From contig MGIW01000003.1 in assembly GCA_001793945.1 (NCBI GenBank), positions 129,630 to 193,629 of the forward strand: a stretch of 64,000 bases of DNA. The letters are read 5' to 3'. The stretch's first letter is position 1. Each line of letters begins with the position of its first letter. Below the pieces are notes generated by a model that saw only the letters and a list, made by a program, of their open reading frames with translations, was not told the origin of the DNA and ran no database searches. Source of the DNA: Candidatus Wolfebacteria bacterium RIFOXYD12_FULL_48_21. GTDB lineage: Bacteria; Patescibacteriota; Minisyncoccia; UBA6257; UBA9933. Shown piece by piece: positions 3,047-21,895 of the stretch. The position numbers and the translations under genes were made by a program.

Positions 3047-4486
3047 CTACGCATCGCCCAATATTTGCGTCTTGCGATGACGCAAATATAGTAGTATTCC
3101 TCCGACGACTGCGTAATAGAACAATAACAATACACCCGTCATTGGCATTGCAAATCCTTTATATGCGCCGAACAGCTCTATTACTCCTATCTCGTATTGC
3201 AACAGCACCGACACACCCCACGCGGGTATGGTCGCTAGCGGAACCGCAACAAACCCGATTGCCGCTATAAGAAATCCCAATCCCATTGTAACGGGAATAA
3301 ACGAGAGGATGACAATATTGGATGCGAGCGACACCAGCGAAAACGAACCGATTGATTGCATGAGTATGGGAAACACCATGAGCTGCGCCGACAGCGTACC
3401 CGACAAGTTTTCCCGCCAATTTAGCACGCCGCTTTTCTTTCGCTTAATGTATGCATCAAGATATGGCTTCACATAAATGATGCCTATTAGTGCGACAAAT
3501 GAAAGCTGAAACCCGAGGTCGTACCGAAGCACATTCGGGTTATACAACACCATAGCGCAGGCGCTTATGGCTATCGCGTTGCGCATGCTATGTGTGCGCC
3601 CAATGTGAGTTGCCAACAACACGATACTCCCCATGATCGCCGCGCGCACCACCGATGCTTCGGCGCCGGCCATGACCACGAAGCCTACTACAGCGCCGAG
3701 TGTTGCGTAAAACGCCGCTGTGCGGCGCAACAGCAACCCACAGGCCAACAGTATCGCTTCCGCAACCACACTAATGTTATACCCGGACAGCGCAACCAAG
3801 TGCGTCGTGCCGCTGTTTGCCATATTTTCCCTGAACTCCCAGTCGAACTCGGCGCGTTCGCCCAGTGTGATCCCCGCGAGCAGTGCCGCTTCGTCGGCAG
3901 GCAATGTCCGCTTGTATGTTTCAACGGCTGATCTTCTTATCGCAAATAGTCGCGTTACAATCGGATTGCCGTCGTTTCTTTTTACTCTATCCACTTCGGG
4001 AAATTGCATCGTTGCAAACAATGCGTCTTTCAATAAAAACCTCCAGCTATCTTCTTTTGGTCTTTGTATGTTTCCTGTCAGCACAAGCGCATCGCCATAT
4101 GCTACGGTCGGATATGCCCGAGCTACTACCGAAAGTCTTCCCGTATGCGGCTCGTCCAGCCGCACGATAAGCCTTTGGCTGTTTTCCATCTTGCGGACCT
4201 CTATTACATGCGCGCGTATTGCCGCCTGCGTGCCTATGAGCGGCGCTATTTGGTCCTGTTGATGCACATTATATCCGGTCCAATACAGCCCTCCCAATAT
4301 GCCCATGAGCGCAAGCGTAGCCAGCCACCCCAGTCGGACACTCCCTTTTTTGTATGCGATCCAACCGAGGCTTCCCGCAATGACCACAACGCTTGCGGAC
4401 ATGCCCGAGAGGTTCATTGCCGGGGCAAAAAATATGCCAAGCAGAAAAAACACGATCCCGAAAAATACGGATTCGTGGAGGTGCAT
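3047..4486 (-). CDS. comEC: ComEC/Rec2 competence-family integral membrane domain protein (first half of a split ComEC)
   Basis: 479-aa polytopic membrane protein with a ComEC-like competence domain, directly upstream and co-oriented with the MBL-domain ORF. Confidence 0.55.
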   Translation of the reverse strand: MHLHESVFFGIVFFLLGIFFAPAMNLSGMSASVVVIAGSLGWIAYKKGSVRLGWLATLALMGILGGLYWTGYNVHQQDQIAPLIGTQAAIRAHVIEVRKMENSQRLIVRLDEPHTGRLSVVARAYPTVAYGDALVLTGNIQRPKEDSWRFLLKDALFATMQFPEVDRVKRNDGNPIVTRLFAIRRSAVETYKRTLPADEAALLAGITLGERAEFDWEFRENMANSGTTHLVALSGYNISVVAEAILLACGLLLRRTAAFYATLGAVVGFVVMAGAEASVVRAAIMGSIVLLATHIGRTHSMRNAIAISACAMVLYNPNVLRYDLGFQLSFVALIGIIYVKPYLDAYIKRKKSGVLNWRENLSGTLSAQLMVFPILMQSIGSFSLVSLASNIVILSFIPVTMGLGFLIAAIGFVAVPLATIPAWGVSVLLQYEIGVIELFGAYKGFAMPMTGVLLLFYYAVVGGILLYLRHRKTQILGDA

Positions 4487-4747: not shown

Positions 4748-5275
4748 TTAAAAATCTACGCCTTTTTTTGCTTTTATCCCCTTTGAAAACGCGTGTTTTA
4801 TTTCGTTCATTTCCGTTACGGTGTCGGCCAATGCGATGAAACTTTTTGGCGCGTTGCGACCGGTCAGAATTACATCGATGCTTTCGGGGACTTTTTTTAA
4901 TAAGTCAGTTACGCTTTTTGCCGTAATCAATTTCAATTCCACTGCATTGTTTATTTCGTCAAGGATCACGAGGTCGTATTTTTTTGACGCGATTAATTTC
5001 TTTGCTTCTTGCAGTCCATCTTCGGCCGCCTTTTTATGTTCCTTGAATGGCAATGCATCTCCTGGAAGATTTACAAACCCTTTTCCTGTTTTGATTATTC
5101 TGAATTTGCCCGTAGGTATGTTGCATGCCTTTGCGAATAGGTCTTCCCCACTCTTCCATGGACCTTTTATGAACTGTATCATCACAACCTTTTTCCCGTA
5201 GCCCAATGCACGCAAGGCTACGCCAAGTGAGGCGGTTGTCTTTCCTTTTCCATTGCCAGTGTTTATGAGGATCAT
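4748..5275 (-). CDS. cobO: ATP:cob(I)alamin (corrinoid) adenosyltransferase, CobO/BtuR family
   Basis: MILINTGNGKGKTTASLGVALRALGYGKKVVMIQFIKG P-loop signature of CobA/CobO adenosyltransferases. Confidence 0.65.
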   Translation of the reverse strand: MILINTGNGKGKTTASLGVALRALGYGKKVVMIQFIKGPWKSGEDLFAKACNIPTGKFRIIKTGKGFVNLPGDALPFKEHKKAAEDGLQEAKKLIASKKYDLVILDEINNAVELKLITAKSVTDLLKKVPESIDVILTGRNAPKSFIALADTVTEMNEIKHAFSKGIKAKKGVDF

Positions 5276-5594
5276 ATTGCTTTCATTGTAGCAAAATAAA
5301 AAAGCGGCGTCAGCCGTTTTTTACTTCTTCGCCGTAATCATACACTTTGCATAACCCTTTATTAATATTGTCTTTTCTCAAATTTTCTATTACCATACTA
5401 TTAAGTAAAGGTTACTGATACTATAATTTCACTACTCCGATAGTACCTGTAAACCATTTCAAAAAATTAAGCGAGCCTGAAGGGCTTTTGTAAGAGAAGC
5501 TGGCTCGCCTTGCCGATGTGGCAAATAATACTATTGTTAAAACTAAACAGTAATTGACCCAATATTATCATAATTTAGATTTTAATTTTCAATC

Positions 5595-6524
5595 ATGACC
5601 ACCGACGAGGCCCAAGATAAAAAACCCATAGTTTCGGAAAGAGATTTTTACGATTTAGTCGACAATACGCCGATTTGCATCAAAGCCTTCGACAAGGACG
5701 GCAAGCTTATTTTTGTTAACAAGGGGGGCAGGGATGAGCATTCTATCAAAGATACCGACGACATCTCCAAATGGGACTGGCTGGGAACAGTCAAAGAACC
5801 ATACCGAGCCGCGGCTTGGGAAAAATTTGAAAAAGCGCTAAAGGGAGAGCCGAGCACCGTTGAATTTGAACATACACCGGAAGGATCAAAACATGCGTGG
5901 TGTTCCGGCACTCTTTCCCCTATCAAAGATGAAAACGGCAATGTTAAATCCGTCTTGTTTTATTCCATTGATGTTAGCTCCCTAAAGGTTGCCGAGCTGG
6001 CGGCACAAGAAAGGGAACAGATGTTTCAAACACTCCTTGATTCCGTTCCTCTTTGCATTAAATGGTTTAATGCAAAAGGTAATTTAATTTCAGTGAATAA
6101 AGGAGGTAGAAAGGAGCATTTTCTGGAAAATTTAACCGAAGAGGAAATTACAAATTGGGACTACATGGGATGCATTGACGAGGCATATCGCTCGCAAGTC
6201 AAAGAAAGCATGACTGCGGCACTGAAGGGAGTAGGGAGCAGCTTTCCCATAAAGCATCCCCCCGGAACCTCGGAAGGCACATGGTGCCAATCTACCATGC
6301 TGCCGGTAAAAGGTTACGACGGCAACATCAAATATGTCTTATTTTTGTCGCGAGACATAACCGACGAAAAATTAATAGGAGAAGAACGGCAAAAATCAGA
6401 AGCAGAAATGAAGCAAAAAAATGAAGAGCTGGAAATATTTAACAAAATGACCGTCAATAGAGAGCTGAAGATGATTGAATTAAAGGAGAAAATAAAAGAA
6501 TTGGAAGAAAAATCGCACCCGTAA
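5595..6524 (+). CDS. Tandem double PAS-domain protein with a C-terminal coiled coil. No output domain is visible.
   Basis: Two internally repeated ~120-aa units (CIKAFDKDGKLIFVNKGGRDEH... / CIKWFNAKGNLISVNKGGRKEH...) with a PAS-like pattern. The C-terminus is K/E-rich coiled coil. Confidence 0.45.
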   Translation: MTTDEAQDKKPIVSERDFYDLVDNTPICIKAFDKDGKLIFVNKGGRDEHSIKDTDDISKWDWLGTVKEPYRAAAWEKFEKALKGEPSTVEFEHTPEGSKHAWCSGTLSPIKDENGNVKSVLFYSIDVSSLKVAELAAQEREQMFQTLLDSVPLCIKWFNAKGNLISVNKGGRKEHFLENLTEEEITNWDYMGCIDEAYRSQVKESMTAALKGVGSSFPIKHPPGTSEGTWCQSTMLPVKGYDGNIKYVLFLSRDITDEKLIGEERQKSEAEMKQKNEELEIFNKMTVNRELKMIELKEKIKELEEKSHP

Positions 6525-6563
6525 TTTTACGGGTGCGATTTTAAATTCATCATTATTTCGACT

Positions 6564-6767
6564 TTAATTACGCCCTTGTGTCGCAATCATACGCTTCGCG
6601 CGAACCCACTCTTGAACGGAACCGGGGAAGCCGCTCCGGTGCTGCTCGCCACTACTCGCCGACCAGTAAAAAAGTCTTCTCTGCATTTCCGAATTTGCTC
6701 GCAAGTATGTTGCATTCCTTTGCGAACAGGTCTTCCCTCTCCCGTTGCCGGTGTTTATGAGAATCAT
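6564..6767 (-). pseudogene. Truncated duplicate of the cobO 5' end (MILINTGNGRGKT...) plus its upstream region
   Basis: 6690-6810 aligns to 5101-5320 (cobO start and promoter region) with an internal deletion. The reading frame decays after ~15 codons. Confidence 0.5.
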
Positions 6768-6820
6768 ATTGCTTTCAATGTAGCAAAATTAAAAAACGGC
6801 GTCAGCCGTTTTTTGCCATG

Positions 6821-6903
6821 TGCGCGGGAGAGGACTTGAACCTCCACGGGATTGCTCCCACAACCACCTCAAGGTTGCGCGCCTGCCATTTCGCCACCCG
6901 CGC
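6821..6903 (-). tRNA. tRNA-Leu(GAG), class II with a long variable arm
   Basis: The reverse complement reads GCGCGGGTGGCGAAATGGCAGGCGCGCAACCTTGAGGTGGTTG...GGTTCAAGTCCTCTCCCGCGCA. It has a 7-bp acceptor stem, anticodon stem CAACC/GGTTG and loop TTGAGGT (anticodon GAG). Confidence 0.7.
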
Positions 6904-6908
6904 GTACA

Positions 6909-7556
6909 TTACCCACCAATACTATCTAAAACCTTCCTAATTTTCAAGTGCTTGCGGGATAGACATCTTACATCATCCGCATAGTACATATATTTGATTA
7001 ATATATCTGATTCTTTCTTCGCGTACCTTAATTGATACACCGAGCTGCTTGGTTTTTCCGCACAATGCCCTTTTATTCCGCACGACTGATTTATCTCCGA
7101 GCGTAGCCAATCAATATGACCGCGACTTGCCGAAACGAAGCTCGTATAATACATGAGGCTTGATTTCCACCGCGGATCCCAGTATGAATAAAAGCACCCA
7201 TCCCCATCAAAATGCCCCCTCAAGAAATCTGCAAAATATTTTTTAGGAATATTTATTTCTTTTAAAATTTTTGTCTTATTCGGCATCAAACCTATTTCTA
7301 TCAAAAAATCATAGAATATTCTGTCTCCCAATTGGATCCGAAAATAATCTTTCTTCTCAGTATATCCGCTCGTATGGCCCTCGGTTTTATTGGAAATACC
7401 AAGACATTCCCTAAAATTATTGATCATCTCCAAATCCTTTGATACAAGAACGATATGTCTCCCATCTTTCGAAAGGCTTCCGTCCGTCACAATCAACCCA
7501 ATCGCATACGCGAACTCAGGAGACCATTCCAGCCTTACTTTGCCGAGCGGTTTCAT
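6909..7556 (-). CDS. Free-standing double-motif LAGLIDADG homing endonuclease
   Basis: Motif 1 is FAYAIGLIVTDGSL and motif 2 is ADFLRGHFDGDGCF. It starts 5 bp upstream of tRNA-Leu(GAG). Confidence 0.7.
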   Translation of the reverse strand: MKPLGKVRLEWSPEFAYAIGLIVTDGSLSKDGRHIVLVSKDLEMINNFRECLGISNKTEGHTSGYTEKKDYFRIQLGDRIFYDFLIEIGLMPNKTKILKEINIPKKYFADFLRGHFDGDGCFYSYWDPRWKSSLMYYTSFVSASRGHIDWLRSEINQSCGIKGHCAEKPSSSVYQLRYAKKESDILIKYMYYADDVRCLSRKHLKIRKVLDSIGG

Positions 7557-7604
7557 AATCTTAATTATATCACCTCAAGGTTGTAGCGTCTACCAATATA
7601 TTCA

Positions 7605-7643
7605 TCAAAAAATCCTCCGTCGGCTGACGGAGGCTCTTTTATT
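7605..7643. terminator. Bidirectional intrinsic terminator (hairpin cctccgtcggctgacggagg flanked by A-run and T-run) after rplS
   Basis: Perfect 8-bp stem with a 4-nt loop, A-rich on the 5' side and T-rich on the 3' side. Confidence 0.5.
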
Positions 7644-7965
7644 ATGCGGCAATGCCGATCTTTTCCCGGGTCTTCTTTTTCGAAAGACTTCGAACGAAGT
7701 AGAGTTTTGCGCGGCGCACTTTTTTCGGGGCGGTGAGCACTTCCACCTTCGAGATCAACGGAGTGTTGAACGGATACACCTTTTCAACGCCAATTTCGCT
7801 GATGATCGAACGGACGGTAAATGTCGAACCGATCTCCTTGCCATGCTTTGTCGCAATAACGATCCCCTGGAATTTGCTGACGCGTTCCTTTTCGCCATCT
7901 TTGATGCGCTCCCAAACGCGAACGCTTGCTCCCGGCTTTATTTTTGCCATGAGTTCTTTATCCAT
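7642..7965 (-). CDS. rplS: 50S ribosomal protein L19
   Basis: SVRVWERIKDGEKERVSKFQGIVIA...TFTVRSIISEIGVEKVYPFNTPLISKVEVL...KVRRAKLYFVR matches L19. Confidence 0.85.
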   Translation of the reverse strand: MDKELMAKIKPGASVRVWERIKDGEKERVSKFQGIVIATKHGKEIGSTFTVRSIISEIGVEKVYPFNTPLISKVEVLTAPKKVRRAKLYFVRSLSKKKTREKIGIAA

Positions 7966-8252
7966 AGTTCGCTTATATTAGTAGATTATGGGGCTGTTGT
8001 CAAACGCACTCTGTCATTCCGAGCGCGGGTCCCGTATCAAGTACGGGATAAACTCCGGCGGGAATCCAGTGTCTTTAATATAGGTCATCACTACTGCAGA
8101 AAACTCTGGATCCCGTGTCGGAGCACGGGATGACACTGCGGGGAGCGGTGGAAATGTGAGATTAGAGGTGTGAGATGTGAGGCGTGGGGATGATGATGCG
8201 AATAAAAACCCCTGCCGTTAAGCAGGGGGTGTATGCAAACAAACGAACAGAC

Positions 8253-21761: not shown

Positions 21762-21807
21762 GCCGGGGTGGCGAAATTGGCAGACGCACTCTCGTAAAAC
21801 TTCACAT
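21762..21807 (+). pseudogene. tRNA 5'-half fragment (acceptor GCCGGGG + D-arm TGGCGAAATTGGCAGACGC) immediately 5' of tRNA-Leu(TAG)
   Basis: The D-arm is almost identical to that of the adjacent intact tRNA-Leu. No anticodon or T arm follows. Confidence 0.3.
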
Positions 21808-21889
21808 GCCCCCATGGCGAAATTGGTAGACGCGCCAGTTTTAGGAACTGGTTCCGCAAGGATTAGAGGTTCGAGTCCTCTTGGGGGCA
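21808..21889 (+). tRNA. tRNA-Leu(TAG), class II
   Basis: Sequence GCCCCCATGGCGAAATTGGTAGACGCGCCAGTTTTAGGAACTGGTTCCGCAAGGATTAGAGGTTCGAGTCCTCTTGGGGGCA. It has a 7-bp acceptor stem, anticodon loop TTTAGGA (anticodon TAG) and T-loop TTCGAGT. Confidence 0.75.
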
Positions 21890-21895
21890 CATTCG

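Follow-up and report, generated by a model that had tools for sequence, protein, structure and literature searches.

We analysed a 64,000-nucleotide (nt) stretch of the genome of Candidatus Wolfebacteria bacterium RIFOXYD12_FULL_48_21 (hereafter the window), in which a homing endonuclease gene (HEG) of the LAGLIDADG type stands on its own between the ribosomal protein gene rplS and a gene for tRNA-Leu(GAG). In the direction of transcription, the locus is made up of the following features:

7642..7965, minus strand: rplS, encoding ribosomal protein L19 (Pfam PF01245, 101.8 bits), the conserved left neighbour
7614..7633, minus strand: Rho-independent terminator 3' of rplS, with an 8-bp stem of which 6 pairs are GC, followed by a T-run (terminator scan)
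7564..7599 (about), minus strand: tRNA-Leu(GAG)-like fragment fused to the HEG promoter, TATTGGTAGACGCTACAACCTTGAGGTGATATAAT (promoter scan)
6909..7556, minus strand: open reading frame (ORF) of the HEG, encoding a free-standing single-chain LAGLIDADG protein of 215 amino acids, with an ATG start and the predicted catalytic residues D25 and D119
6919..6947, minus strand: sigma-70-like promoter TTGAAA-17-TAGTAT, located within the 3'-terminal part of the ORF and 15 nt ahead of the tRNA (promoter scan)
6820..6903, minus strand: intact tRNA-Leu(GAG) (ARAGORN; Rfam tRNA model, 47.9 bits)
6791..6814, minus strand: terminator closing the HEG-tRNA unit (terminator scan)

The terminator at 7614..7633 parts rplS from the HEG-tRNA unit, and a similar hairpin with a T-run lies ahead of the promoter motif in most of the related loci (sampled loci carry L numbers, and the window copy is called WIN). 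The HEG stop codon is 5 nt away from position +1 of the tRNA, on the same strand, and the window tRNA-Leu(GAG) is predicted to be co-transcribed with the ORF. The promoter inside the 3' end of the ORF is probably a second promoter for the tRNA; its layout, TTGAAAAT...TAGxxTAAT, is found in a subset of loci, and its DNA is conserved in WIN, L147, L148, and L149 despite a near-saturated synonymous divergence over the whole ORF (proportion of synonymous differences, pS, 0.64-0.68). The first-pass annotation of this DNA had described a two-motif LAGLIDADG ORF located 5 nt from an uninterrupted tRNA-Leu(GAG), which the ORF call, ARAGORN, and Rfam all confirm; its coordinates, 6821-7556, span the tRNA and the ORF together, and the promoter-fused tRNA fragment (~7564-7599) was overlooked there.

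The Rfam models of group I and group II introns had no match in the window at the gathering score, nor in 6300-8100 at E<=10, the tRNA alone being matched, and the covariance scan thus provides no indication that the ORF is intron-encoded. The ORF possesses its own promoter and its own start codon and is therefore not an intein, and the 7 nt from the -10 box to the ATG and the 5 nt from the stop codon to a complete tRNA leave no room for a ribozyme. The HEG is free-standing, without intron or intein and with its own expression signals, in agreement with the initial description; the accompanying idea that it marks a former group I intron finds neither an Rfam match nor any ribozyme space between promoter, ORF, and tRNA.

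The window ORF contains both LAGLIDADG motifs (AYAIGLIVTDGS and LRGHFDGDGC), each closed by an acidic residue and a glycine (GLIVTDG with D25, FDGDG with D119), and the profile search that had been suggested for it returns Pfam LAGLIDADG_3 (PF14528) at 30.4 bits, above the cut-off of 22.5; no NCBIfam model matches it. By sequence, the nearest solved structure is that of I-Tsp061I (E 1e-5). An AlphaFold2 model based on 41 homologues (predicted local distance difference test, pLDDT, 88.5; predicted template modelling score, pTM, 0.88) has the tandem alpha-beta-beta-alpha-beta-beta-alpha fold with a DNA-binding beta saddle, and its best PDB match in Foldseek is again I-Tsp061I (E 1e-11, TM score 0.69-0.72), followed by I-AniI, I-DmoI, and I-SceI; LAGLIDADG maturases and WhiA are also among its structural matches. 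D25 and D119 do not vary across 63 locus-derived and 41 database sequences, and Q75, K94, and the block 117-137, which includes a beta-hairpin at 122-137, are likewise invariant. The Pfam scan revealed no helix-turn-helix (HTH) domain, no WhiA match, and no Hint or intein domain in the window ORF.

The HEG is under strong purifying selection, with a ratio of nonsynonymous to synonymous substitution rates (dN/dS) of 0.05-0.08 between the window gene and its closest relatives, and visibly broken copies amount to ~1 in 64 (L065). Judged by its residues, the protein keeps all the hallmarks of an active LAGLIDADG enzyme, and we infer that it would cleave DNA in a site-specific manner. The label "domesticated or relic" given to the gene at first pass is hard to uphold: the gene is intact and constrained at the dN/dS given above, it has kept both catalytic aspartates, it is distributed sporadically among close relatives, and it is not clearly domesticated.

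A protein search returned 3815 clusters, the best 120 of which are all ~215 amino acids long, match over their full length with 57-95% identity, and come from Patescibacteria (Paceibacterota, Jorgensenbacteria, Wolfebacteria, and others). An exhaustive search of representatives at 50% identity gave 96 clusters at E<=1e-30 and 1084 at E<=1e-10. The HEG is therefore a member of a large family of the Patescibacteria, also called the candidate phyla radiation (CPR), with thousands of homologues, and it is neither a one-off nor a decaying relic; the genes of this family are currently annotated as "hypothetical" or "intein-containing." The representative search also contained family members of 270-370 amino acids (P0133, P0142, P0148, P0163, P0180, P0190, and others), whose N-terminal extension of ~60-140 residues could stem from mis-called starts or constitute an extra domain.

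We collected 66 loci from species-representative genomes, 63 of which were usable for judging tRNA linkage. A tRNA is present 3' of the ORF and on the same strand in 63 of 63, the ORF stopping at -35 to +25 nt from the tRNA 5' end; ARAGORN identifies it as tRNA-Leu(GAG) in 62 of those loci and calls no anticodon for the remaining one (L055). In ten cases, the ORF runs into the tRNA and stops in its D-loop. The usual gene order is rluD-like, rplS, HEG, tRNA-Leu(GAG), often with tRNA-His close by, and L19 is encoded upstream of the HEG in 55 of the 66 loci. A short motif, TTGACAAAWTWAT, which does not occur in the window, covers positions -13 to -1 before tRNA-Leu(GAG) in L004, L008, L012, L013, L026, L046, L054, L055, L065, and others, and ends exactly at -1 whatever the frame: the TGA within it is a stop codon in some loci, belongs to Leu-Thr codons in others, and is intergenic in L013 and L055. 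A similar leader, TCAAATAAT, is found in L137, a locus devoid of HEG. We rejected TTGACAAAWTWAT as a -35 box because the matching -10 would lie within the tRNA; ordinary promoters are found 20-40 nt ahead of the other tRNAs in these loci.

A metagenome scan with an L19 alignment, conducted to find empty sites, uncovered ~30 loci without HEG, in which the rplS stop codon is at -15 to +230 nt from tRNA-Leu(GAG), and 2 occupied loci; in all, 65 occupied sites were counted against ~30 empty rplS-tRNA-Leu(GAG) sites. The L19 proteins of empty and occupied genomes are up to 82% identical (L095/L022; 78% for L137/L034 and 76% for L083/L038), compared with a mean of 53% among occupied genomes, and L074 (occupied) and L075 (empty) have identical tRNA-array synteny. 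The HEG thus shows a presence/absence polymorphism at one defined site among close relatives, the polymorphism that the first-pass annotation had proposed to look for, and its suggestion that the ORF marks a mobile insertion at a tRNA-associated site is supported. Since the empty loci of relatives show rplS followed by tRNA-Leu(GAG), a tRNA abutting an ORF stop is the ancestral state; in the ancestral arrangement, rplS abutted tRNA-Leu(GAG) directly, and the HEG slotted into an mRNA-tRNA co-transcription unit. The insert of occupied sites measures ~0.75 kb and comprises a terminator, a promoter made of a tRNA copy, and the HEG, which is leaderless and has its stop codon directly before or inside the 5' end of the tRNA.

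The sole genome in which the HEG is apart from tRNA-Leu(GAG) is L040, which has a canonical tRNA-Leu(GAG) (978-1063) 11 nt past rplS and the HEG (3261-3929) with its motif 2 kb away; no other copy deviates as much as this HEG, which differs at five residues within 122-135 that do not vary elsewhere, and the motif upstream of it is degenerate. Pieces of the 5' end of tRNA-Leu are found in two empty spacers, those of L078 (~944-1051) and of L080 (~1497-1790, with two tandem copies); a GC-rich hairpin adjoins each piece, and the pieces may be scars left by previous insertions or by the repair of breaks. In L087 (2867-4312), a small ORF and an ORF of 481 amino acids, which by eye we take to be a candidate UbiB/ABC1-type kinase, replace the HEG between rplS and tRNA-Leu(GAG), showing that the rplS-tRNA spacer can take other insertions.

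The window promoter of the HEG comprises a -35 box, TAGACG (7592-7587), and an extended -10 box, TGATATAAT (7572-7564), and reads TAGACG-17-TGnTATAAT; it scored 10/12 matches, with the TG, in the promoter scan of the window. The ATG comes 7 nt after the -10 box, and a start codon 6-7 nt past this box implies that the HEG mRNA is leaderless. The upstream motif (~35 nt; 39-nt consensus ATTAATTGGTAGACGCTATTACCTTGAGGTGATATAAT) is conserved in 45 loci, the -10 box being TATAAT in 36 of the 45 and the distance from it to the start codon 6-7 nt in at least 30. Each locus has a single copy, always at the HEG promoter, and so does the window, on which grounds we rejected the motif as a general promoter element; its spacer is conserved well beyond the needs of a promoter.

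Save for one inserted T at the junction and G40A, this motif corresponds to positions 13-42 of the canonical tRNA-Leu(GAG), with which it shares ~30 of 33 positions and from which it differs by one indel at the centre. The parts matched are the D-loop, AATTGGTAGACGC, and the anticodon arm, ACTACCTTGAGGTGGTA, as in L040, L090, L112, L114, and others; a canonical tRNA-Leu(GAG) gene of the L090 or L040 type contains GCGAAATTGGTAGACGCACTACCTTGAGGTGGTAGCG, and the motif of L147 and L148 reads ...GAGGTGGTATAAT. In L074 and L058, positions 1-17 of the tRNA are kept right after rplS (GCGCGGGTGGCGGAATC and GCCCAGGTGGTGGAATC), followed by an inserted stretch and then by the D-arm, and the fragment ends at about position 25, outside the anticodon loop. 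The acceptor stems of these two fragments are unlike those of the downstream functional tRNA, indicating that the fragment and the working tRNA are of different origin. We rejected a concerted evolution of the fragment with the resident tRNA, since changes in the "anticodon stem" of the former are not matched by covariation in the stem of the latter; the CAACC match in the window appears coincidental. As far as the alignments tell, the tRNA-gene fragment probably serves as both promoter and operator of the HEG, and we propose that this putative operator is also an old copy of the homing site.

The tRNA linked to the HEG is always a variant, non-canonical allele. The canonical core GGTAGACG[CT]ACTACCTTGAGGTGGTAG is present in 0 of 65 HEG-linked and 9 of 30 HEG-free tRNAs (Fisher p 1.2e-5), and the D-arm GGTAGAC[GA][CT] in 3 of 65 and 15 of 30, respectively (p 6e-7); the figures for the anticodon arm CTACCTTGAGGTGGTAG are 13/65 and 11/30 (p 0.13). 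The D-arm of the window tRNA-Leu(GAG) is the variant GGCAGGCGC, the canonical one being GGTAGACGC. The excess variation of linked tRNAs is located at D-stem alignment positions 10, 11, 23, 25, and 26 and at the following base, 27 (from the D-loop onward, the alignment numbering is one ahead of the standard tRNA numbering), and positions 11 and 25, which are paired in the D-stem, change together. This variable D-stem segment is the one that is best conserved in the upstream fragment. The linked tRNA would thus carry an apparent immunity to cleavage.

HEG identities are compressed relative to those of the hosts: hosts with 93% identity in L19 and 88% in RluD have HEGs that are 68% identical, whereas hosts at ~35% have HEGs at ~52%, and the correlation between HEG and host (rho ~0.5) compares with 0.70 between two host genes. 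Over the same genomes, mean identity is 58.6% for the HEG and 52.8% for L19, with partly correlated distances. The identity of tRNA-Leu(GAG) correlates with that of the HEG (partial rho 0.26, Mantel p 0.001) and not with that of the host (rho 0.05), whereas tRNA-Val and tRNA-Arg, taken as controls, follow host identity (rho 0.41-0.47). When the window is compared with L147, no difference is seen in the tRNA or in the 3' half of the HEG, and rplS diverges by 1-2%, whereas divergence is 15-25% over ~7170-7650, which takes in the rplS terminator, the promoter, and the HEG's 5' half. This divergent tract is 480 nt long and has sharp ends, one within the HEG and the other at the rplS stop codon.

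A location at tRNA 5' ends seems to characterise the family as a whole. Members sharing 34-36% identity with the window protein are flanked by tRNA-Lys(CTT) and tRNA-Leu(TAG) in 4 of 4 cases (L176, L177, L180, and L182), and the ORFs of this subfamily overlap the 5' end of tRNA-Leu(TAG) or stop <=30 nt away. Across the subfamilies at this level of identity, an overlap of 10-30 nt with the tRNA 5' end is frequent. The HEG of L181 overlaps the 5' end of tRNA-Phe(GAA), that of L179 adjoins tRNA-Leu(CAA) in convergent orientation, and L178 has a family member in a phage tail module. The window itself contains, on the plus strand at 21762-21789, a tRNA-Leu 5' fragment extending from the acceptor stem through the D-arm, GCCGGGGTGGCGAAATTGGCAGACGCAC, which is 18 nt upstream of an intact tRNA-Leu(TAG) (21808-21890) with no HEG between them. 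Because a sister subfamily occupies tRNA-Leu(TAG) elsewhere, this fragment may be the footprint of a lost cassette.

Based on these results, we propose that the HEG and its tRNA form a site-specific mobile free-standing LAGLIDADG cassette of Patescibacteria (Paceibacteria-type CPR), which targets and replaces a tRNA-Leu gene, and we assign this reading a probability of about 0.6. The enzyme would recognise the canonical tRNA-Leu(GAG) gene over a stretch that runs approximately from D-loop to anticodon loop, with its centre around positions 25-27, and would cut this gene in chromosomes without the HEG, after which recombinational repair from an occupied chromosome would copy in the HEG together with the cleavage-resistant tRNA allele. 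ComEC is encoded by these organisms. The fragment of the displaced tRNA, kept upstream, would supply the -35 box and the spacer of the HEG promoter, and it would probably also act as an autorepression operator, made non-cleavable by the one extra base at its centre, as with the I-TevI operator. Insertion into the 5' leader of a tRNA would be harmless because RNase P would free the tRNA from the co-transcript, and we further propose that deletion of the cassette would be costly because the cassette carries the tRNA promoters, upstream and internal.

Several points weigh against this proposal. The target is deduced from sequence patterns alone, and the fragment, being one base off the spacing of the real tRNA, may be bound differently. 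The comparison of HEG-linked and HEG-free tRNAs is phylogenetically non-independent, and variant D-arms also occur at some empty sites (e.g., L137 and L070). The identity of the tRNA correlates weakly with that of the HEG, and the control tRNA-His also fails to track the host (rho -0.01 with L19). None of the members in L176-L182, those of the tRNA-Leu(TAG) and tRNA-Phe subfamilies included, has an obvious tRNA-like fragment upstream. The PAS-domain gene near the HEG contains a second divergent patch (window 6060-6510), and the tract found in the HEG is hence not specific to it, which argues that recombination is general in the window/L147 population; both tracts (15-25%) are set in DNA that is otherwise 98-100% identical, and homologous recombination is, on the evidence of these alignments, frequent in this population. 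Viral contigs contain no close relatives of the HEG, only members with 24-34% identity, and for this reason we rejected a phage vector. As an origin of the structure "fragment, HEG, complete tRNA," we also rejected a hybrid tRNA with a foreign 5' part and a native 3' part, as in fungal mORFs, since neither part tracks the host and the test for it gave no signal. The tRNA-His(GTG) concerned lies downstream of tRNA-Leu(GAG) in L004-L065, and its pattern could result from co-conversion with the cassette or merely from fast evolution.

The HEG could instead be a domesticated and vertically inherited gene whose nuclease activity is irrelevant, either a WhiA-like regulator of the HEG-tRNA-Leu (or rplS) unit or a maturase acting in trans on the many rRNA introns found in CPR bacteria. 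The fixed chromosomal position with its strong synteny, the very low dN/dS, the conserved operator-like motif overlapping the promoter, and the presence of LAGLIDADG maturases and WhiA among the structural matches are all in line with such a role, as are the mean identity of the HEG, higher than that of L19, and the partial correlation of their distances. However, many close relatives keep rplS-tRNA-Leu(GAG) without the HEG, so that the HEG does not fulfil a core function; moreover, both catalytic aspartates, Q75, and K94 are invariant, unlike in WhiA or pure maturases, and the protein has neither an HTH domain nor a WhiA match in Pfam. We consider domestication improbable and set it aside on account of the empty sites among close relatives and of the decoupling between HEG and host distances, the former being compressed relative to the latter.

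We also doubt that the HEG is a fixed passenger, once mobile and no longer homing, which would be retained because it supplies promoters to tRNA-Leu(GAG) and because its translation protects the co-transcript. The promoter inside the 3' end of the ORF, the lack of any other space for a tRNA promoter, and the rarity of visibly broken copies (only L065 among ~64) are compatible with this view, and the same logic of retention is known from phage T4 (PMC2988022). But the needs of a promoter or of polarity would keep the frame open and would not produce a dN/dS of 0.05-0.08 over the whole protein, nor do they explain the invariant catalytic residues and the beta-hairpin at 122-137, and the diversification of the D-stem in linked tRNAs together with the presence/absence pattern suggests a continuing activity. 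Finally, a remnant of an intron- or intein-encoded endonuclease, whose ORF would once have resided in a tRNA-Leu group I intron with the fragment as 5' exon and a ribozyme that was lost, is very improbable: the upstream tRNA-Leu 5' fragment does end in or just past the anticodon arm, the usual site of bacterial tRNA introns, and CPR bacteria carry many LAGLIDADG-bearing rRNA introns (PMC11270868), but intron covariance models have no match even at E<=10, the 7 and 5 nt on either side of the ORF leave nothing for a ribozyme, the fragment of L074 and L058 ends at about position 25 rather than in the anticodon loop, and the sister subfamilies abut tRNA 5' ends without an upstream fragment.

The opposite flank of the tRNA contains a duplication of cobO sequence, to which the first-pass annotation had linked the HEG:

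5098-5322 and 6687-6814: duplicated cobO 5' end and terminator, 88-89% identical, flanking the PAS gene
5595-6524, plus strand: PAS-domain gene, on the strand opposite to the cobO copies

The cobO copy beside the tRNA (ORF 6564-6767) is truncated. L148 and L149 have the order HEG-tRNA-cobO-comEC, without PAS gene or duplication. The link does not hold, since these two loci possess the HEG and yet lack both the PAS gene and the duplication, which is thus a recent insertion in the window/L147 lineage, independent of the HEG.

HEGs are thought to persist in cellular genomes mainly within self-splicing introns or inteins, and free-standing copies in bacteria are known chiefly from phages. We found no description of tRNA-linked LAGLIDADG genes in CPR bacteria in the literature searched, and the locus points to a large, previously undescribed chromosomal population of free-standing LAGLIDADG genes in these bacteria, for which tRNA genes are both landing pad and cover. 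As a tentative synthesis, which goes further than the mobile cassette proposed above and which we regard as possible but rather doubtful, the Patescibacteria would host a family of free-standing LAGLIDADG genes adapted to the 5' leaders of Leu-GAG, Leu-TAG, and Phe-GAA tRNAs, with RNase P in place of self-splicing as a third route to harmlessness. The Leu(GAG) members would then be natural "cleave-and-rescue" drives, which cut the canonical, essential tRNA gene, install a resistant allele next to themselves, force a rapid compensatory evolution of the D-stem, and reuse a fragment of their target as promoter and operator. If the mechanism proposed for the cassette holds, settling in a tRNA 5' leader and relying on RNase P for processing would represent a new "safe harbour" strategy and the cassette a natural analogue of cleave-and-rescue gene drives, and the erratic evolution of tRNA-Leu(GAG) in these genomes would be accounted for. 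It would also mean that recombination between cells of ultra-small bacteria is frequent enough to sustain such elements, and that the family offers compact meganucleases with a predictable target of ~22-30 bp in tRNA genes.

The "intronless homing" of free-standing endonucleases in T-even phages (SegB in the tRNA gene cluster of T4, SegF, SegG, and MobE) is a close precedent. In both systems, a lone HEG with its own promoter is present or absent at one site between conserved genes. The cleavage site would likewise be in the neighbouring gene and not at the insertion point, with co-conversion of flanking markers, and in the phages retention of a HEG is favoured by the host promoters that it contains (PMC2988022), as we propose for the cassette. 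The phage enzymes are of the GIY-YIG or HNH type and reside in phage genomes, whereas the enzymes described here are LAGLIDADG proteins encoded in bacterial chromosomes, by ORFs that come within a few nt of a tRNA 5' end and that use a tRNA-gene fragment as promoter.

In fungal mitochondria, free-standing LAGLIDADG or GIY-YIG ORFs known as mORFs insert together with a foreign copy of the gene end that they displace, and the native fragment remains as a duplicate of different origin (PMC3630166), examples being atp6 of Allomyces macrogynus and atp6, atp9, cox2, and nad3 of Glomus. The different acceptor stems of the upstream tRNA fragment and of the working tRNA are the counterpart of this situation in our loci, but as a mirror image, since the 5' part of the gene is displaced here and the 3' part there. 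Besides, the host gene is a tRNA gene in a bacterium instead of a protein gene in a mitochondrion, and what is left of the displaced gene has taken on the role of promoter and, putatively, of operator. The operator of I-TevI, for its part, is identical to the homing site at 15 of 20 positions and overlaps the enzyme's own promoter (PMC2988022); similarly, a lookalike of the presumed target (~30 of 33 positions, one central indel) overlaps the HEG promoter, spanning the -35 box and the spacer. I-TevI differs in being an intron-encoded GIY-YIG enzyme for which binding and repression were shown experimentally, whereas binding is here surmised from the similarity.

The single-chain two-domain fold is shared with I-Tsp061I and I-DmoI, LAGLIDADG enzymes from rRNA introns of CPR bacteria and archaea, and the organism group is the same (PMC11270868). 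These enzymes are intron-encoded and have rRNA targets, whereas the present family is intron-free and tied to tRNA genes; a paper on LAGLIDADG genes in rRNA insertions of CPR bacteria does not mention tRNA-linked copies (PMC11270868). WhiA and the LAGLIDADG maturases also share the LAGLIDADG fold. WhiA binds near its own promoter; it has lost the catalytic acidic residues, as have the maturases, and has gained an HTH domain, whereas the family described here retains D25 and D119 and has no extra domain in its 215 amino acids. In its logic, the association of the HEG with a variant tRNA-Leu would work like synthetic Cleave-and-Rescue (ClvR), which combines two tightly linked components, a nuclease destroying the usual allele of an essential gene and a version of that gene recoded so as to resist it (PMC6442612). 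ClvR is an engineered system that relies on Cas9 and needs no self-copying, whereas the cassette found at tRNA-Leu(GAG) would spread by homing or gene conversion.

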